Shown: one piece after another, positions 44,836 through 63,969 of the stretch
Position numbering within the stretch: position 1 is the stretch's first letter
How the letters are laid out: every line of letters begins with the position of its first letter
Assembly: GCA_902772435.1 (NCBI GenBank)
Contig: CACYAX010000001.1
Coordinates: 4,987 to 68,986 of the forward strand
Reading direction: 5' to 3'
From: an uncultured Coriobacteriaceae bacterium
GTDB taxonomy: Bacteria; Actinomycetota; Coriobacteriia; Coriobacteriales; Atopobiaceae
DNA length: 64,000 nt
Notes under the pieces: model-generated
The model's input: the letters and a program-made list of their open reading frames with translations, nothing else
Told to the model about the DNA's origin: nothing
Database searches by the model: none
Program-made: the position numbers and the translations under genes

Positions 44836-44836
44836 C

Positions 44837-45730
44837 ATGGCAGCTCCCAAGACTCCCATCACGCTCCCCGATTACCAGCAGGAGCGCATCGGTTCCCAGA
44901 TCGCTGAGGGCGAGAAGATCAAGAGCGCCCGTCCGCATGCCCTTACCGACGCCATCTTCAACTACTGCCCCGGCTGCACCCACGGCATCGTGAACCGCCT
45001 CGTGGCCGAGTGCATCGACGAGCTCGGCATCGAGGGCAAGACGGTGGGCATCGCTCCCGTCGGCTGCTCGGTCATGTGCTACGACTTCTTCAACTGCGAC
45101 ATGATCGAGGCCGCCCACGGCCGTGCGCCCGCAGTCGCCACCGGCGTCAAGCGCGTGCACCCCGACAACGTGGTCTTCGCCTACCAGGGCGACGGCGACC
45201 TTGCCTCCATCGGTACCGCCGAGACCGTGCACGCCGCCACCCGCGGCGAGAAGATCACCGTGATCTTCATCAACAACGCCATCTACGGCATGACCGGCGG
45301 CCAGATGGCCCCCACGAGCCTGCCCAACCAGGTCACCCAGACCTCCCCGTATGGCCGCGACGTGAGCAAGGTGGGCTACCCGGTGCGCATCGCCGAGCTG
45401 CTCTCCACCCTCGACGGCGTAGCCTACGTCGAGCGCGTGACCTGCGACAGCCGCGCTCACATCCTCCAGGCGAAGAAGGCCATCAAGAAGGCCTTCCAGA
45501 ACCAGATCGACGGCGTGGGCTACTCCCTCGTCGAGGTCGTGGCCACCTGCCCGACCAACTGGGGCATGACTCCGCAGGACGCGTTCCAGTGGCTGCGCGA
45601 CAACATGCTTCCGTACTATCCGCTGGGCGTGTACAAAGACGTCACGGCTGACGGCTTTGCCAACGCGGCCGAGGCTGCGCTCGAGCGCGCCAAGGACTGC
45701 CCGATCGCCCAGCAGGGAAGGGGTGAGTAG
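44837..45730 (+). CDS. 2-oxoacid:ferredoxin oxidoreductase beta subunit (TPP-binding)
   Basis: ATG at 44837. FNYCPGCTHG and GDGDLASIGTAE motifs. Confidence 0.85.
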   Translation: MAAPKTPITLPDYQQERIGSQIAEGEKIKSARPHALTDAIFNYCPGCTHGIVNRLVAECIDELGIEGKTVGIAPVGCSVMCYDFFNCDMIEAAHGRAPAVATGVKRVHPDNVVFAYQGDGDLASIGTAETVHAATRGEKITVIFINNAIYGMTGGQMAPTSLPNQVTQTSPYGRDVSKVGYPVRIAELLSTLDGVAYVERVTCDSRAHILQAKKAIKKAFQNQIDGVGYSLVEVVATCPTNWGMTPQDAFQWLRDNMLPYYPLGVYKDVTADGFANAAEAALERAKDCPIAQQGRGE

Positions 45731-45731
45731 C

Positions 45732-46286
45732 ATGGCAAAGACCACTACCGAGCTGCTCTGCGTGCTCTCCGGCTTCGGCGGCCAGGGCGTGCTGTTCGCG
45801 GGCAAGGTGCTCGCCAACTGCGGCCTCATCGACGGCCGTCACGTCTCGTGGATGCCGAGCTACGGCCCCGAGATGCGCGGCGGCACCGCCAACTGCAGCG
45901 TGTCGCTGTCCGTCGAGCCCATCGGCTCGCCGTTCATCACCAGGCCGACGGCGGTCATCGCCATGAACCAGCCGTCCGTGGAGAAGTTCGGCCCCACCAT
46001 CGTGCCGGGCGGCGTCTGCGTGATCGACACCACGCTCGCCATGAAGGCCGACGAGATCGAGATGGCCGAGGGCGTCACCCGCTGCATGTTCCCCGCGACC
46101 AAGATCGCCGAGGACGAGGGCCTCAAGGGCCTGGCCAACATCATCTGCCTGGGCAAGCTCTGGGCGGAGACCGGCTTCTGCGAGCACGACGTGCTCACGG
46201 CCGCCATCGAGAAGTGCGTGCCTCCCAAGAAGAAGCACCTGCTCGAGCCCAACCTGCGCGCCATCGAGCTGGGCATCAACCTGTAA
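45732..46286 (+). CDS. 2-oxoacid:ferredoxin oxidoreductase gamma subunit
   Basis: ATG at 45732. LSGFGGQGVLFAGKVLA...SYGPEMRGGTANCSV. Confidence 0.85.
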   Translation: MAKTTTELLCVLSGFGGQGVLFAGKVLANCGLIDGRHVSWMPSYGPEMRGGTANCSVSLSVEPIGSPFITRPTAVIAMNQPSVEKFGPTIVPGGVCVIDTTLAMKADEIEMAEGVTRCMFPATKIAEDEGLKGLANIICLGKLWAETGFCEHDVLTAAIEKCVPPKKKHLLEPNLRAIELGINL

Positions 46287-46310
46287 GCGGGTTCTCATCG
46301 CACGACGAAC

Positions 46311-46339
46311 GGGGCACCGGAAGCGATTTCCGGTGCCCC
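46311..46339 (+). terminator. Hairpin ggggcaccgg/ccggtgcccc after the oxidoreductase operon, with no clear U-tract
   Basis: 10-bp perfect stem. Confidence 0.4.
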
Positions 46340-46475
46340 GTCCCTGTCGGGTTCATGCGGCGACCAGGACTTTCCCGACAGCCCGGACCCCGTCCCTGTC
46401 GGGTCCGTGCCCCAGCCGGACTTTCCCGACAGTTTGGGCCCCGTTCCTGTCGGGTCCGTGCGGCGGCCGGGACCA
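46336..46475. repeat. About 2.7 tandem copies of a 52-bp unit. Each of the two full units carries the inverted repeat CTGTCGGG(N22)CCCGACAG.
   Basis: Units at 46336-46387, 46388-46439 and a partial one at 46440-46475, aligned by eye at about 80% identity. Confidence 0.75.
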
Positions 46476-46562
46476 ACCCGCCAAACCCGAACCAGCCCTG
46501 CAAATGACCCCGCATATGTGCAGTTTGCGTGAGGGATAGGCAACGCCCGGCACCGTGGCGTT

Positions 46563-46591
46563 TTGACAACTGCAGAACGTCGGCGTAGACT
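46563..46591 (+). promoter_or_regulatory. Candidate str-operon promoter TTGACA, 17 nt, TAGACT
   Basis: Consensus -35, good spacing, about 90 nt upstream of rpsL. Confidence 0.5.
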
Positions 46592-46680: not shown

Positions 46681-47052
46681 TTGCCTACCATCAACCAGCT
46701 CGTTCGCCAGGGCCGCAAGTCTGTGGCAGCCAAGTCCAAGAACGCCGCCCTCCAGCACAACCCGCAGAAGCGCGGCGTGTGCACCCGCGTCTTCACCACT
46801 ACCCCCAAGAAGCCGAACTCGGCCCTTCGTAAGGTCGCCCGTGTGCGCCTCGTCAACGGCATCGAGGTCACGGCCTACATCCCCGGTGAGGGCCACAACC
46901 TCCAGGAGCACTCCATCGTGCTCATCCGCGGCGGCCGCGTGCGTGACCTCCCCGGTGTCCGTTACAAGATCATCCGCGGCGCCTACGACTGCGCAGCGGT
47001 CCAGAACCGCAAGCGTGCCCGCTCCCGCTACGGCACCAAGCGCCCCAAGTAA
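46681..47052 (+). CDS. rpsL: 30S ribosomal protein S12 (TTG start)
   Basis: [13 protein letters not shown]...[16 protein letters not shown]. Confidence 0.95.
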
Positions 47053-47104: not shown

Positions 47105-47575
47105 ATGCCGCGTCGTGCAGCAGCAGTCCGTCGTGAGGTTCAGCCTGACGCCGTTTACAACAACCGTCTCGTCACCCAGCTCATCAACAAGGTGCTCCTC
47201 GACGGCAAGAAGTCCGTCGCAGAGCGCATCGTCTACAACGCGTTCGACATCGTCGCCGCCAAGAGCGGCGAGGACGCCCTGACCGTCTTCAAGAAGGCCA
47301 TGGACAACGTCCGCCCGACCCTCGAGGTCAAGCCCAAGCGCGTCGGTGGCGCCACCTACCAGGTGCCCATGGAGGTCAACTCCCGTCGTGCAACCACCCT
47401 CGCCATCCGTTGGATGGTCAACTTCTCGCGTGCCCGCAAGGAGAAGACCATGGCCGAGCGCCTTGCCAACGAGATTCTCGATGCTTCCAATGGTGTCGGC
47501 GCCTCCGTCAAGCGCCGTGAGGACCTCTTCAAGATGGCTGAGTCCAACCGCGCATTCGCGCACTATCGTTTCTAG
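47105..47575 (+). CDS. rpsG: 30S ribosomal protein S7
   Basis: 156 aa, typical S7. Confidence 0.95.
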
Positions 47576-47596: not shown

Positions 47597-49690
<2,094 letters not shown>

Positions 49691-49750
49691 TCAGTATACG
49701 TAGCCAGCTAGGGCGGCAGCAGCCGTCCTGCGAAGATGGAGGTACCAGAA

Positions 49751-50059
49751 GTGTCAAGCCAGAAGATCAGGATTCGCCTCAAGGGCTACGATCATGAGGT
49801 CGTTGACCAGTCCGCGAAGCTTATCGTCGACACCGCCCAGAAGACCGGCGCGCGTGTCTCGGGCCCCATCCCCCTGCCCACCGAGCGCAACCTCTACACG
49901 GTCATCCGCTCACCGCACAAGGACAAGGACTCCCGCGAGGAGTTCGAGATGCGCACCCACAAGCGCCTCATCGACATCCTTGACCCCACCGCCTCTACGG
50001 TCGACAGCCTCATGCGTCTCGACCTCCCCGCAGGCGTGGACATCGAGATCAAGCTCTAA
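49751..50059 (+). CDS. rpsJ: 30S ribosomal protein S10 (GTG start after ggaggt)
   Basis: 102 aa; [19 protein letters not shown]. Confidence 0.9.
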
Positions 50060-50099
50060 GGCAAGCCTCAGCTGATACAGCAGCAATATGGCAAATTGA

Positions 50100-50132
50100 G
50101 CCCCTCCGCCCACCGGGTGGAGGGGCTTTTTG
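50100..50132 (+). terminator. Rho-independent terminator immediately after rpsJ (gcccctcc..ggaggggc plus ttttt)
   Basis: GC stem and T5. Confidence 0.75.
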
Positions 50133-50261
50133 CCTCGGTACGCCGTCTGCAGGGAATGAGGTGGCCTAAACGGTTTCGGTTGCGCCGTGAAAACCTCTCC
50201 ACGTGACAGCTTCATTTATGATGTTCTTTGCTGCGTTGAGCGTCGAGGGAGGTGATGTGCT

Positions 50262-51665
50262 GTGGAGAAGCGCTATCGAGTGCCTGAGCTGCGCATGGCG
50301 CTCATCATCTGCGTATGCTTCTTCCTCACCTCGACAGGCTGGCTCTCGTGGCTCTATCACATCATCGAGCTCGGTCTCTCTGAGTTTGCTGACTTCTTCA
50401 CCTTGGTGTGCGGATACCTGACGCAGGCGGTTGGCGTTGCCGTGTACCTTGCGTTGCGTAAGGGCTTGCGTGATGCGGACAGGTCGATTTCTTTAGCGTC
50501 AATCGTTGTATACGCGCTCCTGTGCGTCCCAGCCTTGCTTGCGAACAATCTTGTAGCGACGCTCGCGTTTGGCCTCTTATCCAACATTCCTTGCGGCATG
50601 ATCCAGGGGATATATCTTTGCCTTTTGGCCGAACAGGTTGATCCGGATCATCAAGGGACCATGTTCGGCTGTGGCTATGCTCTCTCCACATTGATGACTT
50701 GGCTCTTGTCGCTTCCCGCAAGCGGTGCACTCACGCTGGGCATTCCGAGCCTTGCCGTGTGCGCGGTGGTGTCGGTCATCGCCTTTGTCTTGGTGCGCGA
50801 GGCTTTCGTTGAGACGTCGACGGAGGGCGTCGCCAAAGGCTTCGACCCACCTGATGCGGCGATGCCGCGCGACTTGCTCTTCCTCGCGAGTGCGGCAATC
50901 GTCTTGGCGAGTCTCGTGAAGACCGCGGGCTTCTCATTTCCCTCGACCGACCTCGTTTCGGGCGTCAACCTTGAGTTCTCACGCCTGCTGTACGGATTCG
51001 GATTGGTTGTTGCGGGCGTTGCGAGCGACCGCGACCGCCGCTACGGGCTCATTATCTGCACCATGGCACTGGTCATGCCCTTCCTGATGCTCGCCCTTTC
51101 GGGAGCGGGAGCTCCAGAAGCGTTCCTTTGGCTCACGGGCTATTTCCTAAATGGATTCTTTACGGTCTTCCGCGTGCTTCTGATGGTTGACCTTGCCAGG
51201 CGATACGCCCTGCCGGGAGTCGCTGCTCTGGGCTTGCTGATGGGGCGCACGGGCGATGCGCTCGGGTCAATGCTGTGCCTCGCGCTTTCGGGAACCCCCA
51301 TGGTGCTCATCGGTGTGACGGCCGTGCTATTCATGCTTGCCGCCGGGTGTTTCGTGGTGCTTTACCAGCGTTTCTACCAAGCGGAGACGAGCGGTGCGCA
51401 AGATGAGGAGTCCGTGGGGGAGCCGGAGCAGGTTTCTGTGCCGAGCGCACGCGAAGTCTTCGAGCTCTTTGCTGCCCGCTACGGCCTGACGGCTCGCGAG
51501 CGCGACGTGCTGCGGCTCGTGCTGGCGGAGAAGAGCAATTCAGAAATTGCGAGCGAGCTTTTCGTCTCCGAGGGGACCGTCAAATACCATGTGGGCAACC
51601 TGCTCAAGAAGACGGAATGCAAGAACCGCCTCGAGGTCCTGGCGCTATATGCGCGCGGCGAGTGA
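50262..51665 (+). CDS. Membrane-bound LuxR-family regulator: polytopic N-terminal domain plus a C-terminal LuxR/GerE HTH
   Basis: Many hydrophobic helices, then LTARERDVLRLVLAEKSNSEIASELFVSEGTVKYHVGNLLKK. Confidence 0.8.
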   Translation: MEKRYRVPELRMALIICVCFFLTSTGWLSWLYHIIELGLSEFADFFTLVCGYLTQAVGVAVYLALRKGLRDADRSISLASIVVYALLCVPALLANNLVATLAFGLLSNIPCGMIQGIYLCLLAEQVDPDHQGTMFGCGYALSTLMTWLLSLPASGALTLGIPSLAVCAVVSVIAFVLVREAFVETSTEGVAKGFDPPDAAMPRDLLFLASAAIVLASLVKTAGFSFPSTDLVSGVNLEFSRLLYGFGLVVAGVASDRDRRYGLIICTMALVMPFLMLALSGAGAPEAFLWLTGYFLNGFFTVFRVLLMVDLARRYALPGVAALGLLMGRTGDALGSMLCLALSGTPMVLIGVTAVLFMLAAGCFVVLYQRFYQAETSGAQDEESVGEPEQVSVPSAREVFELFAARYGLTARERDVLRLVLAEKSNSEIASELFVSEGTVKYHVGNLLKKTECKNRLEVLALYARGE

Positions 51666-51888
51666 CGCCCCTTAGGTGAAAGAGCCGTTGTTTTCTGATG
51701 CCGCTCACCGCGGGCCAGCGGTTGGTCACCTTGCTCTCAAGACCTCAATCAAATTACAAATCCGCAGGTAGAAGGCAACCTATACCAAACCTAGACTTGT
51801 GGCAAACCAACCTTTTGCGCATGGTGGAAACTGTATTGCTATCTCTAATGCCCAGGGATTCGCGCCATGGGTGAAGGGTGGTGCGCTC

Positions 51889-54800
51889 ATGAGTCGAAGC
51901 TTGAACAGAGCATTGTCCGTCCTGCTTTCCTTTGCGCTTGTTATGAGCACCGTGCCCGCAGAGGCACTGGCAGAGGCGCTCGATGACGTGGCGGCGGTGA
52001 CCGCCGCGGAGGAGGTGGCCGTCGAATCCGAAGGGGATGAAGGGGCCCTGCAGGTGGCGGAGGAGGTCACGCCGGAAGAGTTGGTTGTGACGGACACTTC
52101 TGCGGACGATGATGCTCAGGCAGGCACGGATGAGGGCGCAGCCCCTGCGGCAGCGGCTGACGACGAAGAGACGGCGGAGACTCCAGCGGGCAACGATGCG
52201 ACTGACGAGACCGTGACCGACGAGGGAGCTCAGCCGGAACAGGAGGCTGCGGAACCAGCGGCAGACGAGGAGGGGATCGAGACCGAAGCGGTCGAGGACG
52301 ACCCGCTCTACTTCCAGGACCTCCAGACGGGCAAGCGCGTGACCACGCTGCACACCTCGGGCACCTATCTTTTGGTGGACGCCGACGGGTCGCCCTACAC
52401 CGGATACCTCAGCTCGGTGACGTTTGACTACATGGGCGCAGATCCGCGTGGCAACGAGGGAAGCTATCAGGTCGATCTCAAGACCGTGGACAACTATGGG
52501 GGGTCCGGGGAGAGCGTCCTCGTGCTCGAGGACCTCAAGGACGGCGATGGCTGGCAGCTTCCCTCGGGATCCTATACCGTTGCTGGGGGCTCCTACTTAG
52601 GACACACCAATCTTAAACAGACGTATCGCGTGGTCAATGATGGCCTTTACTGGCATTATTTCGATCTCTCCGACAGCGTGCAACAAGATTCGCTTCGGAG
52701 GGAATTCAGCATCAAGGGCTACAACGAAGACACGACCGACCTTGAATATGACGGCGGACTTACTGACGAGGGCTATTACGTGTCCCCGACCGTTCCCGAG
52801 CAGGACACCTTCGTGCTTGCCGCCGACACGCGCCTCAGGTTCGAAGTCAATTCAACCGTCTCGATGAACGGGAACACCATGCCCCAGATCGAGAGCATCA
52901 GCCTTTGGAAGGCCGACGAAGCGCTCGAGACCCTTGTGGGAACCTTCGACGATGCGGGCGAACTTGTCACAGAGGGCAAGTATGTCGACCTGTATGAGGC
53001 GCTCGTCTCTCGCGTGCCTGAGCTCCTGCAGGAAGGTGGGGTAGACGCCGTGCCCACGTGGCCCAGCTACCTCAATTTTGGCGAGACCGAAAAGCTCACG
53101 ACGCTGTGGGAGCGCGGCGACGCGAGCCTGAACGAGCGCATCGAGCTTGACGCAACCGATGTCGAGAACGGTCAATGCACGTCTACGTCCGTGATCATCG
53201 ACCAGGTCAGTTTCGCGAACAGCGCGGTCGAGGACGGGGTGTATTTCCCAATCGTGAAGGCGACCATCGCCGGCGAGTCCTATACCTACGCGTATTACCC
53301 AATCGAGGTGGCGGCAGAAGAGGATGTGCGCGGCGATCCGCGCATCACGACCTCGGCACTTCCTGCCGGGCGTGTGGGAGATGCGTACACCATCACACTG
53401 AAAGCCCAGAGCGGATCTATCCAGGAGGGCACGTTCTCCTGGGCCGTGACCGAAGGCACCCTGCCCGAAGGCCTTTCCCTCGAGGCTTCGACGGGCATCA
53501 TTTTGGGTACGCCTGCCGCGGAAGGCACGGCGAACTTCACCGTGACCCTCACCGAGACGGTTGGTGGCGAAGACCGTACGACCATGCGCTCCTTCTCCCT
53601 GCGCGTGCGCGAGGCGGCTGTGTCCGAGAACGCCTTTGACAGGCTGTCTTTGGGCGAGATCGGCTATACGCCCGGCACCATTTGGACGTCAGGTGTCTAC
53701 AACAAAGCCACCTACACGACCCTGCGCATCCCAATCTCCCTTGACATCCGTGACGAGCGCTACAACTTGGGCGAAACCGAGCTGTGGTACATGCTCAAGA
53801 TGACGACGAAATACGATGACGGGCCGCACTATCGCGTGTGGCATGACCGAGCTGTGGACCTCATGAATGCCGACGGTACGGCGCTCGAGGTTGCCGCTCC
53901 CGTGGAGAAGGGTCTCCTCTTGGATCCTCTGACCCTCACGAGGATCCGTGCGTTTCTGGTTCCCAAGACAAATAATGGCGACTATGCCTTTGACCCCGGG
54001 CAGCTTGAAAATGACGGCACCTATTCTGATGGCACCCCATACCGGATCCTTCCGATCGAAGTCACCCTGTCCGAACGCTATGGCGCGGAGTCCCAAGACG
54101 CCGTCGTCAATGAGGACGGCTATCTGTCTGAGACGCAGTCCTATGTCTACATGAGTGCAGACGGCAGCTCGACATCAGCAAGCTGGTATGGCGACTACGC
54201 GTATTACAACAACGCTCCCGAGATGCCCCACACGGCGCTCGAGAACCCCGATATAACCTTCGGTAGCTGGATTTCCATACCAGAGCTCGAGCTTGAGGGC
54301 GATGCCGCTTACGCAACTGATGAGGGACGCGTCCGCCTGTGGGCCTGCGACGGCACCACTACGGTGGGCGAGCCGCAGGTACGAGACCTTTCCACCGATG
54401 CCGTCTTCAAATTGAAGCCGGGCACCTATGCCCTCACGGTCGAGGGGCTGGTGCCCTCCTATGACGAGAACGGCGTCGAAATAGAGGACGCCGACGTCTG
54501 GATCGATGTCGTGGGTAAGGTGAGCGGCGCTAGCGTGCTCAAGGGAACCTATCCCAAGCAGTATGTGTTTTCCGTCGGTCCCAACGAGGGAACTAAGAGC
54601 GATCCTCTGGGCATCGATGTGACCTACTCGTATGAGGGCATGAGCGATGTCAACCGCCACTCGGTCTCGCCGACCTTCGAGATGACCGATGGGACCTATG
54701 CGAACAGCCGCGATGCTGGTGTGTATGGCTATGTGCAGTATGAGGTCCGCTGGTATCGTCGGGTGGGCCAAAGCGACCCCGCAAAAGACGTGCTCGTGGC

Positions 54801-57800
54801 AACGGGCGACACGGTGGTGTTCGGCCGGTCTGACTACGACCTGTATGTTGAGGTCGTGCCTACGGGCCGCGACAACGCCTTCTGGAAGGCAAAGAAGCTG
54901 AAGGTCTCCCAAGACAACAAGGTCGTTCAGGTGAAGCTGGAACGCAAGCAGCGGTTCACGGGAACGTTCACGCTTTCGTGCGTGTCGGGCAAGGTTCCGG
55001 CAGGGGGCACGAATTGGGGCATCATCGAGGTGAGCACCATCACAGACGATGGAGGCATCTCGACGTATAACCTTTGGGCAGGCGAGGCCACCGTGTCTGT
55101 GCCCAACCTCACCTCGGGAGCCACGGTCACGTTCACGCCCATCGTGGACCTGAAGGGCGGCGAGGTCTCCTATACCGTGCCGGAAGAAGCCGAGGAGAAT
55201 TTCACCGCCGAGCTGGTAGCGCCTCTAGCGAAGGGGGTCATCGACTTCGAGGGCCTGCACTTCGTTGACGTCAACGGCAAGACGACGGATTTCACGCTCA
55301 ACGATGGCCATACCGGCGTCAAGGTCCAGGTCGGGTACGCCTGGGACGAAGGCATTGTTTACTACGACGAGGTCCCTTCCTACGTCCTTGATGGCGGCAG
55401 CATCCTCCTGCAGCCAGAGCTTTACGAGGACGAGCCGCAGTTCATGCGAAACACGGGGGACACGTTCTATCGCGTGACGGTGACGCATAAGGATCCGGAT
55501 GCGCCCGACTACGTTGGCACCATGACGACCGATGTTGCGGCAAGCGAGTCGTTTGACATCGGGCTTTCCCGCGAGGTCACCTCAGCCACCATCAAGGACA
55601 CGACGTTCCTGTCGCGGGGCTATGCGCTGGTGCCGATAAACAAGGGGTCGCGCAAGCTGGCGAACGTGGCACTTTTCCGCACCACGCTTGATGAGGAAGG
55701 CACGATTACCAGCGCAGAGTCGCAGGACAAGGCGTCGTCTGCGGCGATTGGCGATGTGGACGTGCTGCGCACGCCCTTCCTCGATGCGGGTACCTATGCG
55801 TTCTATGCTGTGTACGCCGATTCATTGGGCGGGGACCTTTCTCTCGAGAATTTCTCGGACATGGAGCGGGTGGTTCGGGATGGCCAAGGTTCTCGTATCG
55901 ACTTCGAGATCGAGGACGGAACCATCACCGACTGCAACACGACGTCCTTCAGGAGTTCCCTGTGGTCGTGGGCCGGCTCCGCGAGTGAAGACAAGGGCTT
56001 GGTGAACAAAGACACCAGCTTCGTGAACGCCTCGATCGTGTATCGCGGCATGACAAGCATCGAGATGCGCGCAGAGCTGGCTTCGGGCGTCACGCTTTCT
56101 GACAGCGCGAGGCTCGAGATACGCACCAACCAGGCATCCGGTGACAGCGGCGCTGGCTATACGCATCCGCGGGCGCTCACCATCAACGGTAAGCCCCTTG
56201 TGATCAACCGCTGGGAGAACCTCTTTAACGGAACCCAGAACATGGATGAAGGCAATCTCACCATACTGCTTTCCGAAGCCAAGAAACAGGGGGCGGAATG
56301 CGCGAGCTTCCCGATGGACCTCACGCTCGTCGTTCCCCGAAACAGCGCAACCAGCACGATCGACGCGAGCGTCTGGCTCGTTGACGGCGGGAAGCGAACA
56401 CTGGTGGGCACGTGTCACGAGGTGTACAACCAGACGGACCTCGTCGTACCGTCGTACGTGGCATGGAAGACCTTCTACGTGTACGGCTCGACAAGTCCCA
56501 ACGCCAACGTGACGGTGTTCATGGACGGCATGCGCGCGGCAACGGCATGCGCCGACAACTTTGGCTACTATTCGGCCGAGATCACGCTGCCTTACGACGT
56601 GCGCAACAACGATAGTTTCTCGTTGACGGCTTCGGCACAGTGGGCTACCGCAGACAGCATAACGCACGCGGCGACCACCGAGTCGCACGAGGTGATATAC
56701 ACCGAGGCCATCCCCGTCGTCGAACGCATCACGGCGTATTACCAGTCTATGCCGGGCGATCCCTACACGTCCGTGGTGAGCTACTATCGCGGCATGATGC
56801 CCGACAAGTATCGGCGCATCTATCGTGCCGAGAACGAAGGGGGCTCGTCCACAGGCGAGCATGCCATGCAGTTCTGGATGGTGGAGTTTGCCAACCCGAA
56901 GGGCGTGTGTGACGTGTCGATCACGGTGCCGTTCGCCTCGGGTGATGTCACGATGGAGACCACTGACAAGATCGCTACTGCCAAGTCCTGGATTCCCGAC
57001 GTGAAGAACGCAAGCACCGGCTACTCCTATGCTGGCCAAGAGATACTGGATGGCCTTTCGGCAACGGAGCCGCACGGTTTCGTGTCGAAGCCCACGTACT
57101 TCGCGACGGCGCCGACTGAAATCATGGTGAATTCCAGCCTCGACATCGAGGCCATCAGGCAGCCTGGCTTTGAGACGGTGGTGGACATCGGCTCGGCCTT
57201 GGGAGCCTTCGAGGGTTACCAGGCGGAGGGCATGGCAGAGGACATCGAGGGCTATCTGGGCAAGATGTCCGACAGCGGTTACCTGCATATCCTTACGGAT
57301 GCCGAGGTGGCACAGCTGACGGTTAACCAAGGCACGCTCGTCAAGCCAGAAGACCTACCGGACGTGTCGGCGACGGCGCAGACTCTGCTCACAAACGCAG
57401 CGGGGTGTGCTGACGACTGGGTTTTGCTCGGGCCTGCTAAGGATGCCACCAGCGGAGAGGATGCACTGCTTCTGCTGCATCACACAGCCCAGACCACGGC
57501 GGTCTCTCAAGACGCGATTTCTAGCGAAGTGCAGGGCCTTGTGGATGGCACGCAGACCCAGCGCGACCTGTGCGCCCCGTGGTTCGCTTCGGGGACTGCC
57601 GTAAGCGAGGAAGACCTTGCAGAGGCGGCATACGCGGGCAACAACCTCGTCTACGCCATCGACGGGACGACCGAGGGAGTCGACGACCCCTCCTGCCTCT
57701 ACAACATCATCACTGAGGACAATGCAGGCAACGTCCAGTGGGAGACGCTCAACGAGTACGTCATATATGGCTCCGGCAAGCACTACTACACCTTCCAGCG

Positions 57801-60297
57801 CATGGACAAGCAGAGCATGCGCTACGTCACGTGGGACGAGGAGTACGGTCGTCGGGTCGACGTGAGTTACACGATCCATCCAAACCAGGTGCGCCAGAGC
57901 GCCGTGGGCTTCTATGACCTCTACCTGCAGTGGAACACAACACTTCTTGCCCTGCATCGCGGCATTGACGAGGGCCTTGGCTATACGGAAGATGACACCA
58001 TCTACGGCGAGGTGGAAGACGATGTGCTCATCGGGCAATCGACGGACGACGGGGCGCTGGGAAGCGATGAGTCCTCGTTGGCGACGCAAGGCTTTTGGGG
58101 TGAAGCCGGCGGCTACCTTGCGGGAGACTCGATTAAGTATGGCCTCGAACAGATATGCAAGCAATTTGGCATCAAGAGCACCGACGAGAACATGCAAGAC
58201 GCGAATACCCTCAACGAGCAGATCAACAACCCCGAGTTCCGTATGCAGCGCACGGCGATTGACGGCAACCAGAGCTGGATTGTCGACGGAATGAAGACCA
58301 TAGCTGCGCGCCAGACCGTCAATAACGTCTCGAACACGGCGTACAACTACGTGTCAAGCGGTCGTTCTGCCTTTGGTATCGCCACGCTCTTCATTCCGGT
58401 CTCACCGACCCAGGAGGCGGTCGAGGCGGTAAGCTCGGGCAAGGGCTGGCCTACCAACAAGAAGAAGGCCACGACGACCAAGCCCAAAAAGAGGAAGCGT
58501 CCCCAGACCGAGAAGGAGTGGAAGGAGGAGTACTGGCGCCAGGCGATTGCCCGTGAGATGGGCTGGGAATACGACATGACCATCTTCTTTGAGCTGGACA
58601 AGACCACGCTCAAGCACTGCGTCCAGTACTTCGAGCGGAACCTCAAGCAGAATTTGCCCGACCTCTGGCGAAAGTACGAGCTCCATAAGAGGGTCCACGA
58701 CCCGTCTGGCTTCGTGTATGAGGCGGTGCTGTCCAACGTGGTGGAAGGCGCGACGGTCAAACTGTACACCTACAACCCTGCGGCGGCCGAAGCGGGCTTT
58801 GACGACCCGTCTACCTTCGTGGACTCCGAGCAGTTCGGGCTGAGTGAAGAGAATCCGCAGGTCACGGGAGCTGATGGACGCTACCAGTGGTTCGTGCCAG
58901 AAGGGTTCTGGCAGGTGCGCGTGAGCAAGACGGGCTACGAGAGCTTCAGCACGGGCGAGTGGGGCCATAAGGAGTCGCATCCGGTCTATGGCGAGGATGG
59001 CGAGCCGGTGCTCGATGAGGACGGCGCGATGGTCGCGCAGGCCGTCTGGGTCGGCGACTACGGCATCGGAGGCACGAAGGACTTCGACGGCGACGGCGAA
59101 GACGATGCGGCCGAATACTGGATGCCCGTGCTGCCCGTCCAGCTGGACGTGAACATCCCGCTCGTAAGCTATGAGGAGCCCACGATAGAGACGATTGAGG
59201 CGGGCGAGGACGGGGTGACGGTGACCTTCTCCAAGTACATGAAGGTCGATACCGTTACGGCCGATCTCTTCTCCATCGACGGCGAACAGGCACCTTCATG
59301 CACGCCGGTTGACGAGGAGGCGGCCGCTGACGGCTCCGGCCAGATGCTGGCGACCACCTTCAAGCTGTCATACCCCGACTCGACGGAACTCGTCGTGGGG
59401 TTCAACAGGATCTCCGTGACGTTCGATGACGAGAACAGCGTGGCCACTAGTTATGCGGGCGTTCCGGCCGATGACTATGCGACGAAGACGGTCTACGTGA
59501 CCATTGAGAACATCGACATCTCCCAGGCAAGCATCGCCGCCATCCCCGCGCAGACCTACACTGGCAAGGCGATCAAGCCGGCGATCACGGTGACGTACGG
59601 CGGGAAGACCCTCGTCGCCGGCACCGACTACACGGTGACGTATAGCGACAACGTGAACGTGGGCAACAAGGCGACCGTGACCGTCACGGGCACGGGCGAC
59701 TTCGCGGGCACCAAGTCCGCGACCTTCCGCATCGCCTTCAAGGACGTGAGGAAGGGCGCGTGGTACTACAACGTGGTGCACCGCGCGAACGACCTCGGGC
59801 TGATGAACGGCTACGGCGGGGCCAGGGCGGGCAACTTCGGGCCCAACGACAACATCAGGCGCTGCGACGTGGCGGTGATCCTCTGGAACATGGCGGGCAA
59901 GCCGGCCGCGGGCACGGGCGCGAAGAGCTTCGACGACGTCAAGTCGGGCGCCTACTACTACGCGGCGGTGCGCTGGGCGAGCTCCGTGGGCGTGGTGAGC
60001 GGCGGCAGCGACGGCACGTTCCGCCCGACCGACGACGTGACGCGCGAGGAGCTCGCCAGCATGCTGAGGAGCTACTACGTGAAGGTCGCCGGGAGGACGG
60101 CGGCCGGCTCGGCGGCCGACTTCGCCTCGATGCCTGACGCCTCGAAGGTCTCGATCTGGGCGCGCAGCGGCGTGGGCTTCTGCTTCAGGAACAGGATCAT
60201 CTCCGGCAAGGACGGCCTGATCGCCCCGAAGGCGACGGCCACGCGCGCCGAGACGGCGAAGATGGTGGTCTTCCTCTACGACATGCTGAACGCGTAG
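51889..60297 (+). CDS. Giant (about 2802 aa) secreted cell-wall protein with three C-terminal SLH domains
   Basis: Signal peptide MSRSLNRALSVLLSFALVMSTVPAEALA. Acidic region. He_PIG-type putative Ig domain (about 53344-53555). CarboxypepD_reg/Cna-B-like module (DPSGFVYEAV...TGADGRYQWFVPEGFWQVRVSKTGY). Ig-like YTGKAIKP module. SLH repeats at 59737-60294. Confidence 0.8.
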   Translation: MSRSLNRALSVLLSFALVMSTVPAEALAEALDDVAAVTAAEEVAVESEGDEGALQVAEEVTPEELVVTDTSADDDAQAGTDEGAAPAAAADDEETAETPAGNDATDETVTDEGAQPEQEAAEPAADEEGIETEAVEDDPLYFQDLQTGKRVTTLHTSGTYLLVDADGSPYTGYLSSVTFDYMGADPRGNEGSYQVDLKTVDNYGGSGESVLVLEDLKDGDGWQLPSGSYTVAGGSYLGHTNLKQTYRVVNDGLYWHYFDLSDSVQQDSLRREFSIKGYNEDTTDLEYDGGLTDEGYYVSPTVPEQDTFVLAADTRLRFEVNSTVSMNGNTMPQIESISLWKADEALETLVGTFDDAGELVTEGKYVDLYEALVSRVPELLQEGGVDAVPTWPSYLNFGETEKLTTLWERGDASLNERIELDATDVENGQCTSTSVIIDQVSFANSAVEDGVYFPIVKATIAGESYTYAYYPIEVAAEEDVRGDPRITTSALPAGRVGDAYTITLKAQSGSIQEGTFSWAVTEGTLPEGLSLEASTGIILGTPAAEGTANFTVTLTETVGGEDRTTMRSFSLRVREAAVSENAFDRLSLGEIGYTPGTIWTSGVYNKATYTTLRIPISLDIRDERYNLGETELWYMLKMTTKYDDGPHYRVWHDRAVDLMNADGTALEVAAPVEKGLLLDPLTLTRIRAFLVPKTNNGDYAFDPGQLENDGTYSDGTPYRILPIEVTLSERYGAESQDAVVNEDGYLSETQSYVYMSADGSSTSASWYGDYAYYNNAPEMPHTALENPDITFGSWISIPELELEGDAAYATDEGRVRLWACDGTTTVGEPQVRDLSTDAVFKLKPGTYALTVEGLVPSYDENGVEIEDADVWIDVVGKVSGASVLKGTYPKQYVFSVGPNEGTKSDPLGIDVTYSYEGMSDVNRHSVSPTFEMTDGTYANSRDAGVYGYVQYEVRWYRRVGQSDPAKDVLVATGDTVVFGRSDYDLYVEVVPTGRDNAFWKAKKLKVSQDNKVVQVKLERKQRFTGTFTLSCVSGKVPAGGTNWGIIEVSTITDDGGISTYNLWAGEATVSVPNLTSGATVTFTPIVDLKGGEVSYTVPEEAEENFTAELVAPLAKGVIDFEGLHFVDVNGKTTDFTLNDGHTGVKVQVGYAWDEGIVYYDEVPSYVLDGGSILLQPELYEDEPQFMRNTGDTFYRVTVTHKDPDAPDYVGTMTTDVAASESFDIGLSREVTSATIKDTTFLSRGYALVPINKGSRKLANVALFRTTLDEEGTITSAESQDKASSAAIGDVDVLRTPFLDAGTYAFYAVYADSLGGDLSLENFSDMERVVRDGQGSRIDFEIEDGTITDCNTTSFRSSLWSWAGSASEDKGLVNKDTSFVNASIVYRGMTSIEMRAELASGVTLSDSARLEIRTNQASGDSGAGYTHPRALTINGKPLVINRWENLFNGTQNMDEGNLTILLSEAKKQGAECASFPMDLTLVVPRNSATSTIDASVWLVDGGKRTLVGTCHEVYNQTDLVVPSYVAWKTFYVYGSTSPNANVTVFMDGMRAATACADNFGYYSAEITLPYDVRNNDSFSLTASAQWATADSITHAATTESHEVIYTEAIPVVERITAYYQSMPGDPYTSVVSYYRGMMPDKYRRIYRAENEGGSSTGEHAMQFWMVEFANPKGVCDVSITVPFASGDVTMETTDKIATAKSWIPDVKNASTGYSYAGQEILDGLSATEPHGFVSKPTYFATAPTEIMVNSSLDIEAIRQPGFETVVDIGSALGAFEGYQAEGMAEDIEGYLGKMSDSGYLHILTDAEVAQLTVNQGTLVKPEDLPDVSATAQTLLTNAAGCADDWVLLGPAKDATSGEDALLLLHHTAQTTAVSQDAISSEVQGLVDGTQTQRDLCAPWFASGTAVSEEDLAEAAYAGNNLVYAIDGTTEGVDDPSCLYNIITEDNAGNVQWETLNEYVIYGSGKHYYTFQRMDKQSMRYVTWDEEYGRRVDVSYTIHPNQVRQSAVGFYDLYLQWNTTLLALHRGIDEGLGYTEDDTIYGEVEDDVLIGQSTDDGALGSDESSLATQGFWGEAGGYLAGDSIKYGLEQICKQFGIKSTDENMQDANTLNEQINNPEFRMQRTAIDGNQSWIVDGMKTIAARQTVNNVSNTAYNYVSSGRSAFGIATLFIPVSPTQEAVEAVSSGKGWPTNKKKATTTKPKKRKRPQTEKEWKEEYWRQAIAREMGWEYDMTIFFELDKTTLKHCVQYFERNLKQNLPDLWRKYELHKRVHDPSGFVYEAVLSNVVEGATVKLYTYNPAAAEAGFDDPSTFVDSEQFGLSEENPQVTGADGRYQWFVPEGFWQVRVSKTGYESFSTGEWGHKESHPVYGEDGEPVLDEDGAMVAQAVWVGDYGIGGTKDFDGDGEDDAAEYWMPVLPVQLDVNIPLVSYEEPTIETIEAGEDGVTVTFSKYMKVDTVTADLFSIDGEQAPSCTPVDEEAAADGSGQMLATTFKLSYPDSTELVVGFNRISVTFDDENSVATSYAGVPADDYATKTVYVTIENIDISQASIAAIPAQTYTGKAIKPAITVTYGGKTLVAGTDYTVTYSDNVNVGNKATVTVTGTGDFAGTKSATFRIAFKDVRKGAWYYNVVHRANDLGLMNGYGGARAGNFGPNDNIRRCDVAVILWNMAGKPAAGTGAKSFDDVKSGAYYYAAVRWASSVGVVSGGSDGTFRPTDDVTREELASMLRSYYVKVAGRTAAGSAADFASMPDASKVSIWARSGVGFCFRNRIISGKDGLIAPKATATRAETAKMVVFLYDMLNA

Positions 60298-60319
60298 GGG
60301 GGCGCACACAGTGACGCAC

Positions 60320-60357
60320 GGGGCGCCGGGGCATCTGCCTCGGCGCCCCTTCTGTCT
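60320..60357 (+). terminator. Terminator after the giant SLH gene (ggggcgccg..cggcgcccc plus ttctgtct)
   Basis: 9-bp GC stem and a T-rich tail. Confidence 0.6.
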
Positions 60358-60727
60358 AGATGGTGGAACAAGGGACGGAGGTTTGTTTCACGTCTTGTTC
60401 CACGCGTCTCCAACGTCAGCGGAGAAGCGTTCGGCGGGCTTATGGCGACTCTCCAACGAGGTCTCAGGTCGGTCTTTCGGTCTAATTCCATGGAAACTTT
60501 GTGAAACCCCCGGAGCCGGGCGTTCCCTGCTATACTCGAAAAGCTGCTGAATTGTGGCGATTGCTGTCGCATGCCCGCATGTCCCAGCCTGTGTAGGGAC
60601 ACCTGCTCGCGAGCAAACAACAGTAAAACCGCAGCTAGGCAGCACATCAGAGGACGCGGTCCGCTGGGGGAGGGCGAAGGGTTCGCCCCAACTGAAGTCC
60701 CATGACCGCCAAACGAAAGGACCAGGA

Positions 60728-61348
60728 ATGGTCAACACGATTCTCGGCCGCAAGATCGGGATGACTCAGGTGTGGGATGAGGACGACAACGTCGTGCCCG
60801 TCACCGTCATCCAGGCTGGCCCCTGCACGGTGTCGCAGGTCAAGACCAAGGCTACTGATGGCTATGAGGCCGTCCAGATCGGCTTTGGTGACATCACCGC
60901 CAAGCACGTCAACAAGCCGCGCGCTGGCCACTTTGCCGCCCAGGGCGTCGAGCCTATGCGCTACCTGCGTGAGGTTCGCGTCGAGGACGCCAGCCAGTAC
61001 AGCACCGGCGACCAGGTCACCGTGGCCGACTTCGCAGAGGTCAAGGCCGTCGACGTGACCGGTACCTCCAAGGGTAAGGGCTTCCAGGGCACCATCAAGC
61101 GCTGGAACTTCCACCGTGGCCCCATGACCCATGGTTCGCGCAACCAGCGCCGCCCGGGCTCCATCGGCCAGTGCGCTTACCCCGCTCGCGTCCGCAAGGG
61201 CCTGCACATGGCTGGCCACATGGGCGATGAGCGCGTGACCGTCAAGAACCTCAAGCTTGTCCGCATCGACGCCGAGCAGAACCTCATGCTCATCAAAGGC
61301 GCGGTCCCTGGCGGCAAGAACGCCCTCGTCCAGGTCCGCATGGCCTAA
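60728..61348 (+). CDS. rplC: 50S ribosomal protein L3
   Basis: ATG at 60728; MVNTILGRKIGMTQVWDEDDNVVPVTVIQAGPC. Confidence 0.95.
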   Translation: MVNTILGRKIGMTQVWDEDDNVVPVTVIQAGPCTVSQVKTKATDGYEAVQIGFGDITAKHVNKPRAGHFAAQGVEPMRYLREVRVEDASQYSTGDQVTVADFAEVKAVDVTGTSKGKGFQGTIKRWNFHRGPMTHGSRNQRRPGSIGQCAYPARVRKGLHMAGHMGDERVTVKNLKLVRIDAEQNLMLIKGAVPGGKNALVQVRMA

Positions 61349-61389: not shown

Positions 61390-62016
61390 ATGTCCAGTAT
61401 CGAAGTCAAGAGCGTCGAGGGGCAGGCGGCCGGTACCGTCGAGCTCTCCTCTGACGTGTTCGGCATCGAGCCGAACGTCCCCGTGATGCACCAGGTCGTG
61501 GTGGCCTACGAGGCCTGCCTGCGCCAGGGCACCCACTCCACCAAGAACCGTCACTTCGTCTCTGGTGGCGGCAAGAAGCCGTATCGCCAGAAGGGCACCG
61601 GCCGTGCCCGTCAGGGCTCGACCCGCGCTGGTCAGTGGACCGGCGGCGGCGTGATCTTCGGGCCCCTGCCCCACAGCCACGCCCTGCGTTGCAACAACAA
61701 GATGAAGAAGCTCGCCATGCGCTCCGCGCTGTCCGCCAAGCTGGCTGACGCCGAGCTCGTGGTGGTCGACGAGCTCTCCTTCGAGAAGCCGTCCACCAAG
61801 GGCGCCGTCGCCATCCTCAAGGCGCTCGAGCTCGAGGCCAAGCGTGTGACCGTCGTCGTCCCCGACGATGACGTCAACACCTACCTCTCCTTCCGCAACA
61901 TCCCCACCGTCACCGTCATCGGTGTCTCTGAGGCCAACACCCGCTATATCCTCGACAACGGCGCCCTGCTCATGAGCACCGCTATCGCGAAGCAGCTTGA
62001 GGAGGTGCTTGCTTAA
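61390..62016 (+). CDS. rplD: 50S ribosomal protein L4
   Basis: 208 aa; typical L4 (GGGKKPYRQKGTGRARQGS). Confidence 0.95.
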   Translation: MSSIEVKSVEGQAAGTVELSSDVFGIEPNVPVMHQVVVAYEACLRQGTHSTKNRHFVSGGGKKPYRQKGTGRARQGSTRAGQWTGGGVIFGPLPHSHALRCNNKMKKLAMRSALSAKLADAELVVVDELSFEKPSTKGAVAILKALELEAKRVTVVVPDDDVNTYLSFRNIPTVTVIGVSEANTRYILDNGALLMSTAIAKQLEEVLA

Positions 62017-62319
62017 ATGAAGTCCGCTTACGATGTCATCATCCGCCCGGTCGTCTCCGAGCGTTCCTTCGACCTCATGGCCGACGGCAGGTACACCTTC
62101 GAGGTTGCCCGCACCGCGCCGAAGGAAGAGATCGCTGCTGCCGTTGAGAAGCTCTTCGGTGTCCACGTTCTCAAGGTCAACACCATGTGGGTCCGCGCCA
62201 AGAAGAAGCGCCTGCGCTACAACTATGGCACCACCCGCACGTGGAAGAAGGCCATCGTCACCATCGCCCCGGGCGAGACGATTGAGGTCTTCGCAGCCCA
62301 GGCCGCTGCAGCCGAGTAA
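62017..62319 (+). CDS. rplW: 50S ribosomal protein L23
   Basis: 100 aa; DVIIRPVVSERS. Confidence 0.9.
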   Translation: MKSAYDVIIRPVVSERSFDLMADGRYTFEVARTAPKEEIAAAVEKLFGVHVLKVNTMWVRAKKKRLRYNYGTTRTWKKAIVTIAPGETIEVFAAQAAAAE

Positions 62320-62457
62320 GTAAGGTAAACCCGCCCGCCAAGACGTGGTTGGGCGTGTTATGCCGCGCAACATAGATACGCGCGGTACCGTGGTAATCCG
62401 GTGTCGTCCCGCAAGTCCCTGAACGGGACGGCCAACGGGTAAGAAAGGGAAGAACGA

Positions 62458-63300
<843 letters not shown>

Positions 63301-63330: not shown

Positions 63331-63591
63331 ATGAGCAGAAGTCTCAAGAAGGGCCCGTACGTGGAGACTCGCCTCCTCGAGCGTGTCATTGCTATGAACG
63401 AGTCCGGCAAGAAGGAAGTCATCAAGACCTGGTCGCGTTCCTCGACCATCTTCCCCGAGATGGTTGGCCACACGATCGCCGTCCACGATGGCCGCAAGCA
63501 CGTCCCCGTGTACGTTACCGAGTCCATGGTCGGTCACAAGCTCGGCGAGTTCTCGCCGTCCCGTACCTTCCGCGGCCACAAGGTTAAGTAG
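63331..63591 (+). CDS. rpsS: 30S ribosomal protein S19
   Basis: 86 aa; [11 protein letters not shown]. Confidence 0.95.
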
Positions 63592-63606: not shown

Positions 63607-63969
63607 ATGGCTAAGAGAACCAACCCGGGCGAGGTCCGCGCGACCGCTAAGTTCGTCCGCATGGCCCCGCGCAAGGTGCGCATGGTGGTGGCCCAGATCC
63701 GCAACAAGTCCGTCGACGATGCTCGCGAGACGCTCCAGTTCTGCGAGCGCGCTGCCGCCGAGCCCGTCGCCAAGGTCCTGAACTCGGCCATCGCCAACGC
63801 CGAGAACAACAACAACCTGCGCGCCAGCAACCTCGTGGTTGCTGAGGCCTATGTCGACGAGGGTCCGACCCTCAAGCGCATCCGCCCGCGCGCCAAGGGC
63901 TCCGCTTCGCGCATCAACAAGCGCACGAGCCACATCACCGTCGTCGTCGCACCCAGGAAGGAGGCGTAA
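63607..63969 (+). CDS. rplV: 50S ribosomal protein L22
   Basis: 120 aa; typical L22. Confidence 0.9.

Follow-up and report, generated by a model that had tools for sequence, protein, structure and literature searches.

Separation of rpsJ from rplC in Coriobacteriales, variable intervening genes, and a candidate leader RNA upstream of rplC

The str-S10-spc cluster is a textbook case of near-invariant gene order, and the adjacency of rpsJ and rplC within it serves as a synteny anchor. We analyzed a 64,000-nt stretch of high-GC DNA (0.59–0.69) from an uncultured Coriobacteriaceae bacterium of the family Atopobiaceae (GenBank assembly GCA_902772435.1, contig CACYAX010000001.1, positions 4,987 to 68,986; hereafter, the window), in which these two genes are separated by a LuxR-type regulator gene and a giant surface protein gene. 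We consider it probable that in Coriobacteriales generally the str/S10 boundary lies one gene further downstream than in Escherichia coli, with two units flanking the junction and cargo genes between them. Judging from the comparison with relatives, the 10.7 kb in the window appear to be cargo located between operons and not a one-off disruptive insertion, and the split itself appears to be an old, order-wide trait; the arrangement is a lineage-wide variant of ribosomal protein (r-protein) operon organization, not a new kind of system. The rplC unit is preceded by a conserved structured RNA, a well-supported new candidate for an r-protein leader (r-leader). This reading draws on the anatomy of the locus and its conservation, on covariation in the RNA, and on the variability of the cargo, and it would extend to a transcription start upstream of rplC, the absence of read-through from rpsJ, a ligand of the RNA, and control of the giant gene by its LuxR-type neighbor. 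In the literature that we covered, incompletely, an rpsJ|rplC split has not been described for Coriobacteriia.

Two Units Flanking the rpsJ–rplC Junction

A first-pass annotation of the window had placed rpsJ, a terminator, the LuxR-type gene, the giant gene, a second terminator, and rplC in this order, and all of these features were recovered (Table 1), with the gene map upheld by the listing of open reading frames (ORFs), their translations, and Pfam and NCBIfam profile searches. From the rpsJ stop at 50059 to the rplC start at 60728, the insert spans 10,668 nt and comprises two terminators and two unrelated genes, the last 370 nt ahead of rplC, after the second terminator region, being noncoding. 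The uncoupling of rpsJ from rplC asserted in that annotation is thus borne out by the terminators and cargo lying between the two genes and is also seen across Coriobacteriales.

Upstream of the junction, rpsJ groups with fusA, as previously proposed: the spacer between them is 45–60 nt, as in all Coriobacteriia loci examined, and fusA abuts rpsJ because no tuf follows fusA. The sole tuf of the window (~7900–9157) is found in a tRNA-tuf-tRNA-secE-nusG arrangement, which is tufB-like, with tRNAs at 1616, 7585–7843, and 9607; tuf would have relocated to this locus. The start of rpsJ was placed by gene callers at ATG 49736, yielding 107 aa. However, a Shine-Dalgarno (SD) sequence, GGAGGT, at 49738–49743 precedes GTG 49751 by 7 nt, and GTG 49751 is favored because its 102-aa product covers the NCBIfam S10 profile completely (1–102/102), so that this codon is the probable true start of a canonical S10. 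The terminator reported directly behind rpsJ is equally evident, given that the fold of 50060–50140 reaches −43.7 kcal/mol (z = −4.9), with none of 200 shuffled sequences as stable, and an equivalent terminator is located downstream of rpsJ in all split relatives. The gene rpsJ would be the last cistron of an rpsL-rpsG-fusA-rpsJ unit running from a promoter-like site at 46563–46591 to a stop at 50131.

Downstream of the junction, the unit comprises 12 genes, from rplC to rplX, followed by a terminator, according to the gene table of a same-species contig (L011). In that contig (15663–20621), rplX and the terminator (15688–15720) are followed by genes for a PASTA-domain protein, HSP20, and a Ser/Thr kinase instead of rplE, which indicates that the S10/spc cluster is broken again after rplX.

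The Split Is Shared Across Coriobacteriales

To place the locus among relatives, fusA, rpsJ, rplC, and rplD were located in 80 loci representing one genome per species and in 120 metagenome loci. The closest S10 proteins are those of Atopobiaceae metagenome-assembled genomes (MAGs; full-length identity of 95%) and Olsenella uli (97% over residues 6–107), followed by Collinsella, Eggerthellaceae, and other Actinomycetota. The rpsJ–rplC gap varies widely among these genomes. It is ~17 nt, with neither content nor motif, in Eggerthella, Raoultibacter, and similar genomes, and ~30 nt, again without content, in typical Actinomycetota, such as Streptomyces and Nocardioides. In uncultured deep relatives (L3 53–69% identical) and some Eggerthellaceae-like genomes, the gap measures 114–141 nt and contains an extended −10 element and the RNA motif described below, without a terminator. 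Several Atopobiaceae and a deeper relative (L087, L3 70% identical) have gaps of 187–382 nt with terminator, promoter, and motif but no gene, whereas other Atopobiaceae and Collinsella accommodate lineage-specific genes in ~1–4.5 kb. The window, with its 10,668 nt, is matched in length by a Collinsella locus (L149; 10,687 nt) that carries birA, fabH, fabK, fabD, and further genes. Within Coriobacteriales, the gap thus spans 0.2 to 10.7 kb.

The cargo differs from lineage to lineage: a low-molecular-weight phosphotyrosine phosphatase in Atopobium MAGs, a zinc-ribbon membrane protein in Olsenella/Tractidigestivibacter, a LytTR two-component system with phosphatases in O. uli An820, a cation-efflux protein with a histidine phosphatase in L090, and an antisense lipoprotein gene in L219 and L184. 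The presence of an antisense gene between rpsJ and rplC argues against obligatory cotranscription of the two in those lineages. The first-pass annotation had called for a check of rpsJ–rplC synteny in relatives; this check shows the split to be old and lineage-wide, and the notion of an insertion peculiar to this genome does not stand.

A Conserved Promoter-Like Element Upstream of rplC

The extended −10 element TGcTATACT, TGCTATACT, which had been suggested as a possible promoter of the rplC unit, coincides with a conserved −10 when the ~400 nt preceding rplC are aligned for ten genomes of Atopobiaceae and Collinsella; all ten share the T, A, and T of the hexamer without exception. The pattern (T)GTG-TAnACT-AGACAGGCTG recurs in ~35 of 37 distinct Coriobacteriales leaders, and the site in the window is the only match to TANNNTNNNNARGCTG there. 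Conservation continues downstream of the −10 (AGACAGGCTGC in relatives, AAAAGCTGCTG in the window). A unit from rplC to rplX would accordingly be predicted to start near 60543, and the resulting 5′ untranslated region (UTR) would include a variable hairpin at ~60571–60611 that is common to the closest relatives.

In the deep relatives with short gaps, TGGTAGAAT, TGGTACAAT, TGGTACTAT, or GGTTATAAT, extended −10 elements of the TGGTAnAAT type, directly adjoins the stop codon of rpsJ; the −35 element would fall inside rpsJ, and no terminator intervenes. Because these relatives carry the promoter with neither terminator nor cargo, the internal rplC promoter, judged from its conservation, would predate both. 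The claim that the insert had forced a new promoter upon rplC therefore holds as to a separate, predicted promoter and fails as to the cause, the promoter and leader being already present in relatives devoid of cargo. In the proposed sequence of events, the internal promoter and leader would have existed before any DNA was inserted; rplC would have been freed from read-through from rpsJ, and the junction would then have behaved as an inter-operon spacer, gathering lineage-specific genes.

A Conserved RNA Structure Abuts the rplC Ribosome-Binding Site

The final ~75 nt before rplC are the best-conserved part of the spacer and form three stacked helices, P1 to P3, within a motif of 54 nt (Table 1). 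Between P1 and P2 lies an internal loop of 3 nt, CKC, facing a single U or A; the internal-loop nucleotides are strongly conserved, and the distal hairpin is variable. Eight nucleotides separate the 3′ strand of P1 from the rplC SD in the window, and 8–13 nt do so across lineages, whatever is found upstream.

A covariance model built from ten genomes, applied to 1.15 Mb of rpsJ-anchored loci, yielded 16 matches, of which 15 reached E ≤ 3e-5 and the remaining one, in L080, was weak (17.5 bits, E 0.48). Each of the 16 is located directly upstream of rplC, and there are none elsewhere at E < 1. An unfiltered scan of the window returned a single match of 80 bits, with the runner-up at 10 bits; the window thus holds no second copy of the leader. 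A pattern scan of metagenomes gave 120 loci; rplC starts at most 60 nt downstream in 84 of them, and 47 distinct leaders were obtained. Alignment-free folding of these leaders produced a hairpin of at least 6 bp from the inner segment in 47/47 (median z = −3.5). Among 50 aligned sequences, 95% of the cells are paired, compared with 35–50% when the partners are slid, and double changes occur at 10 of the 18 pairs, with 0 of 500 shuffles as good; these figures are to be read with reservation, as the scan pattern fixed most P1 and P2 bases and the alignment (A4) was fitted to the model. Independent structural support comes only from P3, from the Y-R pair in P1, and from the subset anchored on rpsJ. 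P3 covaries at all seven of its pairs, and at the second pair of P1, 36 sequences have U-A and 13 have C-G. In P2, L089 displays a compensatory change from G-C to A-U, and a G-U pair is compatible with the + strand only.

None of the families in Rfam 15 matched the motif in permissive searches of 60300–60800 and of eight representative leader loci, and at Rfam gathering thresholds the whole window returned only five tRNAs and no leader family. In the 2020 catalogue of r-leaders (PMC7247131), none is listed before bacterial rplC; the nearest entries are an S10 leader ahead of rpsJ in Firmicutes and a candidate L4 leader ahead of rplC in archaea. For cyanobacteria, a conserved structure preceding rplC has been reported (PMC12873609); outside that group, our incomplete coverage of the literature revealed no bacterial rplC leader.

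The RNA is located upstream of an r-protein gene, has a covarying structure, and abuts the ribosome-binding site, three of the features by which r-leaders are recognized, and it is very probably a functional cis-acting RNA of some kind. The established precedent for r-protein autoregulation of this kind is the feedback of L4 on the S10 leader in E. coli (PMC3616713). By analogy, an r-protein of the unit, uL4 or possibly uL3, when in excess over rRNA, would bind the leader and block the 30S subunit at the adjacent rplC SD, making the leader an autogenous translational operator; we give this role, binding by a protein of its own unit that hinders 30S binding, an even chance. The first-pass annotation had invoked L4 autoregulation through the S10 leader and overlooked the rplC leader, which is its likely local counterpart.

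Several further points weigh against the two-unit interpretation or against the operator role of the leader. The rplC SD lies outside the structure, and the RNA itself does not sequester it. A search for rRNA mimicry, in which the loop and helix strings were compared with E. coli 16S, 23S, and 5S rRNA, gave only two-mismatch matches at chance level, and the ligand is not deducible from it. The ATTGTGAA box upstream of the promoter lies 17 nt from the −10 in most genomes and 26 nt from it in the window and its nearest relative, L106, so that the strength of the promoter in the window would rest on the TG extension that the −10 carries in both. The rplC promoter, its start site, and the efficiency of the terminators are predictions, and partial read-through from rpsJ over the 10.7 kb is possible. 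Finally, the direction of change, loss of the element in Eggerthella-type genomes as opposed to gain elsewhere, was deduced without a species tree.

Some of these points would also fit an mRNA processing or stability element, such as a cleavage site for RNase III or RNase E by which the rpsJ and rplC messages of unsplit lineages are separated, or a site for a nonribosomal factor or small molecule, which we regard as an unlikely identity for the conserved RNA. In the deep lineages, the motif is intercistronic, where processing makes sense, rRNA mimicry was not found with the E. coli sequences, the SD is outside the structure, and a weak second copy of the motif is present in the rpsQ–rplN spacer of a distant genome. 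However, the position of the motif is fixed 8–13 nt before the rplC SD in every lineage, the combination of a conserved internal loop with a variable distal hairpin is typical of protein-binding r-leaders, and the motif is still conserved in the split lineages, where nothing is left to separate; with its 54 nt, it is also below the usual complexity of riboswitch aptamers. The second copy, in L126 (8357–8400; 29.7 bits; CCGGUCCGCUCGGG...CCGAUGACCGG), has no counterpart in the species of the window, as judged from L011 14889–14962.

The Cargo: A Membrane LuxR-Type Regulator and a Giant Surface Protein

The insert contains two ORFs only. The first encodes a polytopic LuxR-type regulator with a GerE helix-turn-helix (HTH) domain (PF00196) at residues 409–459. 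Its N-terminal ~370 residues are hydrophobic, with hydropathy peaks over residues 7–366, and hydropathy together with reading of the sequence suggests ~12 transmembrane (TM) segments in a 6+6 layout, in agreement with the weak MFS_1 match over the membrane part; NCBIfam matches are confined to the HTH part.

The second ORF encodes a giant secreted protein, presumably anchored by its SLH domains, the ligand of which is the pyruvylated secondary cell-wall polymer (csaB). The best start is ATG 51889, from which a signal peptide, MSRSLNRALSVLLSFALVMSTVPAEALA, is visible in the sequence; the 2784-aa start chosen by gene callers cuts it off. He_PIG was identified at residues 486–573, and the C terminus carries three SLH repeats (3.4e-28) that match the SLH structure of Bacillus anthracis Sap, whereas ~2000 residues lack a Pfam match and no LPXTG motif is present. 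Residues 575–1700 were modeled as all-β with moderate to low confidence (pLDDT 64, pTM 0.31), which is suggestive of a body of tandem Ig-like/β-sandwich domains akin to those of the Gram-positive pilus adhesins SpaC, PitA, and BcpA. The family is rare: 5.8 billion clustered proteins include six full-length homologues, 38–46% identical, and the C-terminal anchor differs among homologues, being a ricin lectin, CW_binding_2, or Big_2 domain. Some homologues occur in unrelated contexts, one adjoining a Y1 transposase. In L225 (9716–9937), a 46%-identical homologue with a CW_binding_2 anchor is encoded immediately upstream of rpsL, and three of the six informative loci of the family are r-protein operon junctions.

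Another species (L223) has the order rpsJ-terminator-LuxR-giant-terminator-repeats-ATTGTGAA box, as in the window. The two loci share 93% identity in S10, 51% in LuxR, and 45% in the giant protein, which indicates that the module is old at the rpsJ|rplC site and fast-evolving. Despite this divergence of the flanking proteins, a 37-nt block upstream of the giant gene, 51762–51798, is kept in L223; it includes a −10-like TAGACT at 51792–51797 with a poor −35 and may function as an operator and activator-dependent promoter. The LuxR protein would activate the giant gene through this conserved promoter, and the two-gene module would be insulated by a terminator on either side.

A leaky rpsJ terminator, with growth-rate-dependent read-through that deliberately couples the LuxR and giant genes to the r-protein units, is quite improbable. 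Such coupling would be in keeping with the co-orientation of all genes and with the recurrence of giant surface protein genes at rplL|rpoB in the window and upstream of rpsL in L225, but strong terminators are present on both sides of the module, a conserved promoter-like block of its own precedes the giant gene, and the antisense or housekeeping genes found at this junction elsewhere show that co-orientation is no rule.

Origin of the Insert

The reading under which a recent horizontal island split an intact S10 operon, a new promoter arising afterward, is that of the first-pass annotation; the comparative series already refutes it in large part, and we assign it a still lower probability than read-through coupling. 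The insert has a GC content of 0.59–0.62, compared with 0.63–0.65 in the flanks, and a third-position GC content (GC3) of 0.73–0.79, compared with 0.82–0.93; the giant family is very rare, and the unrelated contexts of some homologues, including the one beside the Y1 transposase, would be compatible with mobility. However, the GC content falls inside the range of the window itself, where the sortase-pilus block is similar (0.60–0.62 at 14–24 kb), which leaves slightly lower GC3 as the only compositional break. Conservation of the promoter and leader extends to cargo-free relatives and to the deep lineages with gaps of 114–141 nt, and a second species holds the module at the same site with 45–51% identity, so that it is not recent. 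As the earlier annotation had noted, no mobility genes are visible: the ORF list and Pfam matches revealed no mobility gene, integrase, transposase, or tRNA in the insert, and a search for direct or inverted repeats flanking it found none.

Misassembly at 50.1 or 60.4 kb, raised earlier as a possible refutation, did not hold up. An identical S10 protein is encoded on 21 public contigs and an identical L3 on 19; the identical layout recurs in ten or more independent metagenome assemblies, which stem from different samples and studies, and the order rpsL-rpsG-fusA-rpsJ-LuxR-giant-rplC-rplD onward is found in every sufficiently long contig, including one of 18,318 nt (L003/L012) that covers rpsL to rpsC with both junctions. 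Because independent assemblies agree on gene order, the layout is not a misassembly, and a chimeric join at conserved ribosomal genes has a near-negligible probability: such joins do occur here, as illustrated by L005, but many contigs span both junctions, a diverged species has the identical order, and terminator, promoter, and leader are at their expected places. L005 itself was considered as a second species with the module and rejected, its identity to the window leaping from ~75% to 100% inside fusA (~9200); it is probably chimeric and was excluded as evidence for transfer of the module.

Comparison with Known Systems

The window resembles the E. coli S10 operon (Zengel and Lindahl; PMC3616713) in the gene order from rplC onward (Pfam; L011 gene table) and in having a structured leader before the first cistron of the unit, beside the ribosome-binding site, with autogenous control plausible. 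The differences are substantial. The unit opens at rplC rather than rpsJ, the rpsJ–rplC adjacency is missing, the fusA–rpsJ spacer, where the promoter and L4-responsive leader of an E. coli-type operon would lie, is only 45–60 nt, and no Rfam leader is found in the window. Unlike the E. coli S10 leader, the motif in the window lacks a terminator hairpin with a U-run, so that an attenuation arm is not evident, and has no Rfam match.

Insertions in r-protein gene clusters have been reported to gather between, not within, operons, with synteny relaxing afterward (PMC8046335). The window shares with these published cases small to medium gene blocks at junctions, colinear flanking units, later neighbors that are variable or disconnected, and no obvious mobile-element signature, but its rpsJ|rplC junction lies inside what is a single operon in model organisms. 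According to our interpretation, rpsJ|rplC became a junction because the internal promoter and leader exist. Compared with a mobile genomic island, the insert has no integrase, transposase, repeats, tRNA target, or clear compositional deviation.

In cyanobacteria, plastids, and archaea, the S10 gene is located among the str genes and L3 opens its own unit. The window is similar in that rpsJ lies with elongation factor genes and rplC is first in its unit, with a conserved structure ahead. In Archaeoglobi, a candidate L4 r-leader precedes rplC (PMC7247131). By contrast, the lineage of the window belongs to Actinomycetota and is independent, no tuf lies between fusA and rpsJ, and the Rfam models gave no match.

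For the regulator, the closest parallel is provided by the LuxR proteins with 10–12 TM segments of Eggerthella lenta (DadR, HcdR, CadR), which activate adjacent genes, those for catechol dehydroxylases, in response to small aromatic substrates (PMC9734109). The window protein likewise combines a polytopic N-terminal membrane domain with a C-terminal GerE HTH and is encoded beside its presumed target in a member of Coriobacteriia, but the neighbor is a giant surface protein. The latter is similar to B. anthracis Sap and EA1 in its signal peptide and C-terminal SLH triplet and to the adhesins SpaC, PitA, and BcpA in the β-sandwich body predicted by the low-confidence model. It departs from SLH proteins and Ig adhesins in its ~2000 residues without a Pfam domain, the missing LPXTG motif, and the swapping of anchors among homologues.

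Implications

The locus suggests how an operon can be opened harmlessly, with an internal promoter and its own leader coming first and insertions second, and the relatives offer a graded natural series for the study of operon evolution, from ~17 nt through 114–141 nt, 0.2–0.4 kb, and 1–4.5 kb to 10.7 kb. The leader adds a new candidate cis-regulatory RNA in abundant gut and rumen bacteria. Among cultured organisms, the motif is carried by O. uli and Tractidigestivibacter (genome loci) and, by inference, by Collinsella aerofaciens, isolate contigs of which end before rplC. Genetic tools for Coriobacteriia exist, and feedback control of uL3, uL4, and their neighbors is poorly known outside Proteobacteria, which makes the question testable. 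The cargo ties the TM-LuxR family to a giant surface protein instead of a metabolic enzyme, a possible new role, and an rpsJ|rplC break in Coriobacteriales should not be taken as an error flag by operon predictors or synteny-based binning checks.

A broader scenario can be advanced only tentatively, namely that the leader represents a new class of r-protein-sensing RNA that, together with the internal promoter, replaced the rpsJ leader in the ancestor of Coriobacteriia and released rpsJ into the str unit, and that r-protein junctions of Atopobiaceae then became preferred sites for giant, fast-evolving adhesin genes. The scenario considers three junctions: rpsJ|rplC with the SLH-anchored giant, the site ahead of rpsL in L225 with a homologue of that giant, and rplL|rpoB with the pilus cluster that includes a 3121-aa adhesin.

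Table 1. Positions of the genes, predicted signals, and RNA elements around the rpsJ–rplC junction in the window
Feature	Position	Strand	Basis or detail
Promoter-like site of the rpsL-rpsG-fusA-rpsJ unit, TTGACA-17-TAGACT	46563–46591	+	Consensus scan, 10/12 matches; prediction
rpsL	46681–47052	+	ORF with high GC3; S12 in gene tables of identical contigs
rpsG	47105–47575	+	ORF with high GC3; S7 in gene tables of identical contigs
fusA	47597–49690	+	Pfam; high GC3; EF-G in gene tables of identical contigs
rpsJ (S10), final gene of the str-type unit	49736–50059	+	Pfam Ribosomal_S10
Intrinsic terminator after rpsJ, GCCCCTCCGCCC-ACC-GGGTGGAGGGGC then TTTTT	50100–50131	+	12–14 bp G+C stem, U5
Polytopic membrane LuxR-type regulator, 467 aa	50262–51665	+	Pfam GerE 8.9e-17; weak MFS_1; hydropathy
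Conserved block upstream of the giant gene (candidate operator and activator-dependent promoter)	51762–51798	+	Conserved between window and L223
Giant secreted SLH-anchored surface protein, 2802 aa	51889–60297	+	Signal peptide, He_PIG, 3 SLH repeats
Intrinsic terminator after the giant gene	60320–60357	+	Stem 60320–60349, 13 bp with 12 G-C, T-rich tail; z = −3.7
TTTGTGAAAC box upstream of the rplC promoter	60498–60507	+	ATTGTGAA box conserved in Atopobiaceae
Predicted extended −10 of the rplC unit, TGCTATACT	60528–60536	+	Aligned relatives; hexamer TATACT 60531–60536
Putative rplC 5′ UTR, ~185 nt given a start directly behind the −10	60545–60727	+	Promoter position
rplC leader motif, structured RNA	60656–60709	+	Covariance model 80 bits, covariation
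P1	60656–60661/60704–60709	+	GYGGUC/GACCRC
P2	60665–60669/60698–60702	+	UGGGG/UCCCA
P3 hairpin	60672–60678/60682–60688	+	Variable, often AAGGG loop
SD of rplC, AGGA	60718–60721	+	Sequence; position conserved in alignment A2
rplC	60728–61348	+	L3_bact 294 bits (NCBIfam), Pfam
rplD	61390–62016	+	Pfam
rplW	62017–62319	+	Pfam
rplB	62458–63300	+	Pfam
rpsS	63331–63591	+	Pfam
rplV	63607–63969	+	Pfam

Other Interrupted Junctions and Repeats

The tRNA-tuf-secE-nusG-rplKA-rplJL-rpoBC-str-S10 supercluster is colinear in the window but interrupted at junctions, which matches the published pattern of insertions between operons (PMC8046335), except that the str|S10 junction has moved behind rpsJ. Between rplL (12845–13213) and rpoB (28435–32025), a 14.5-kb sortase-pilus cluster (13608–28099) encodes a 3121-aa adhesin (SpaA, DUF7601, ALK_LTK_GRD, DUF5979), an LPXTG backbone pilin, two sortases, and an FctA-like pilin, and constitutes a second giant surface protein block at a junction of r-protein and RNA polymerase genes. 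Approximately 10 kb of metabolic genes (36787–46300) lie between rpoC and rpsL, including those for an HTH-cupin regulator, two AMP-binding enzymes (one fused to AP_endonuc_2), a CbiA-like protein, a ferredoxin, and subunits of a 2-oxoacid:ferredoxin oxidoreductase; in the other-species part of the chimeric contig L005, rpsL is directly behind rpoC.

Just upstream of the rpsL promoter, a 51-nt tandem repeat is present in 2.7 copies (46330–46470), each with the inverted repeat CCCTGTCGGG/CCCGACAG, and arrays of different ~30-nt repeats occur behind the giant gene at the same type of junction in L223 (~11950–12600) and L225 (~9090–9400). A box, GATACGCCCGG(N)ACCGTGG, is found upstream of translation-gene promoters at 7481–7491 (tRNA/tuf) and 46537–46560 (rpsL), before rplC in relatives (alignment A1), and before rpsL in L225; its positions are suggestive of a shared upstream element, although its count in the window (9 versus 7.4 expected) is not significant. 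The upstream box TGGATACGCCCG, likewise with nine matches in the window versus 7.4 expected, was rejected as an enriched element and is of note only for the location of its matches. The GATACGCCCGG(N)ACCGTGG box also occurs at 62374–62392 in the rplW–rplB spacer (62320–62457), which is unusually long, at 138 nt, contains a hairpin at ~62400–62430, and may represent an internal promoter or an rplB leader.

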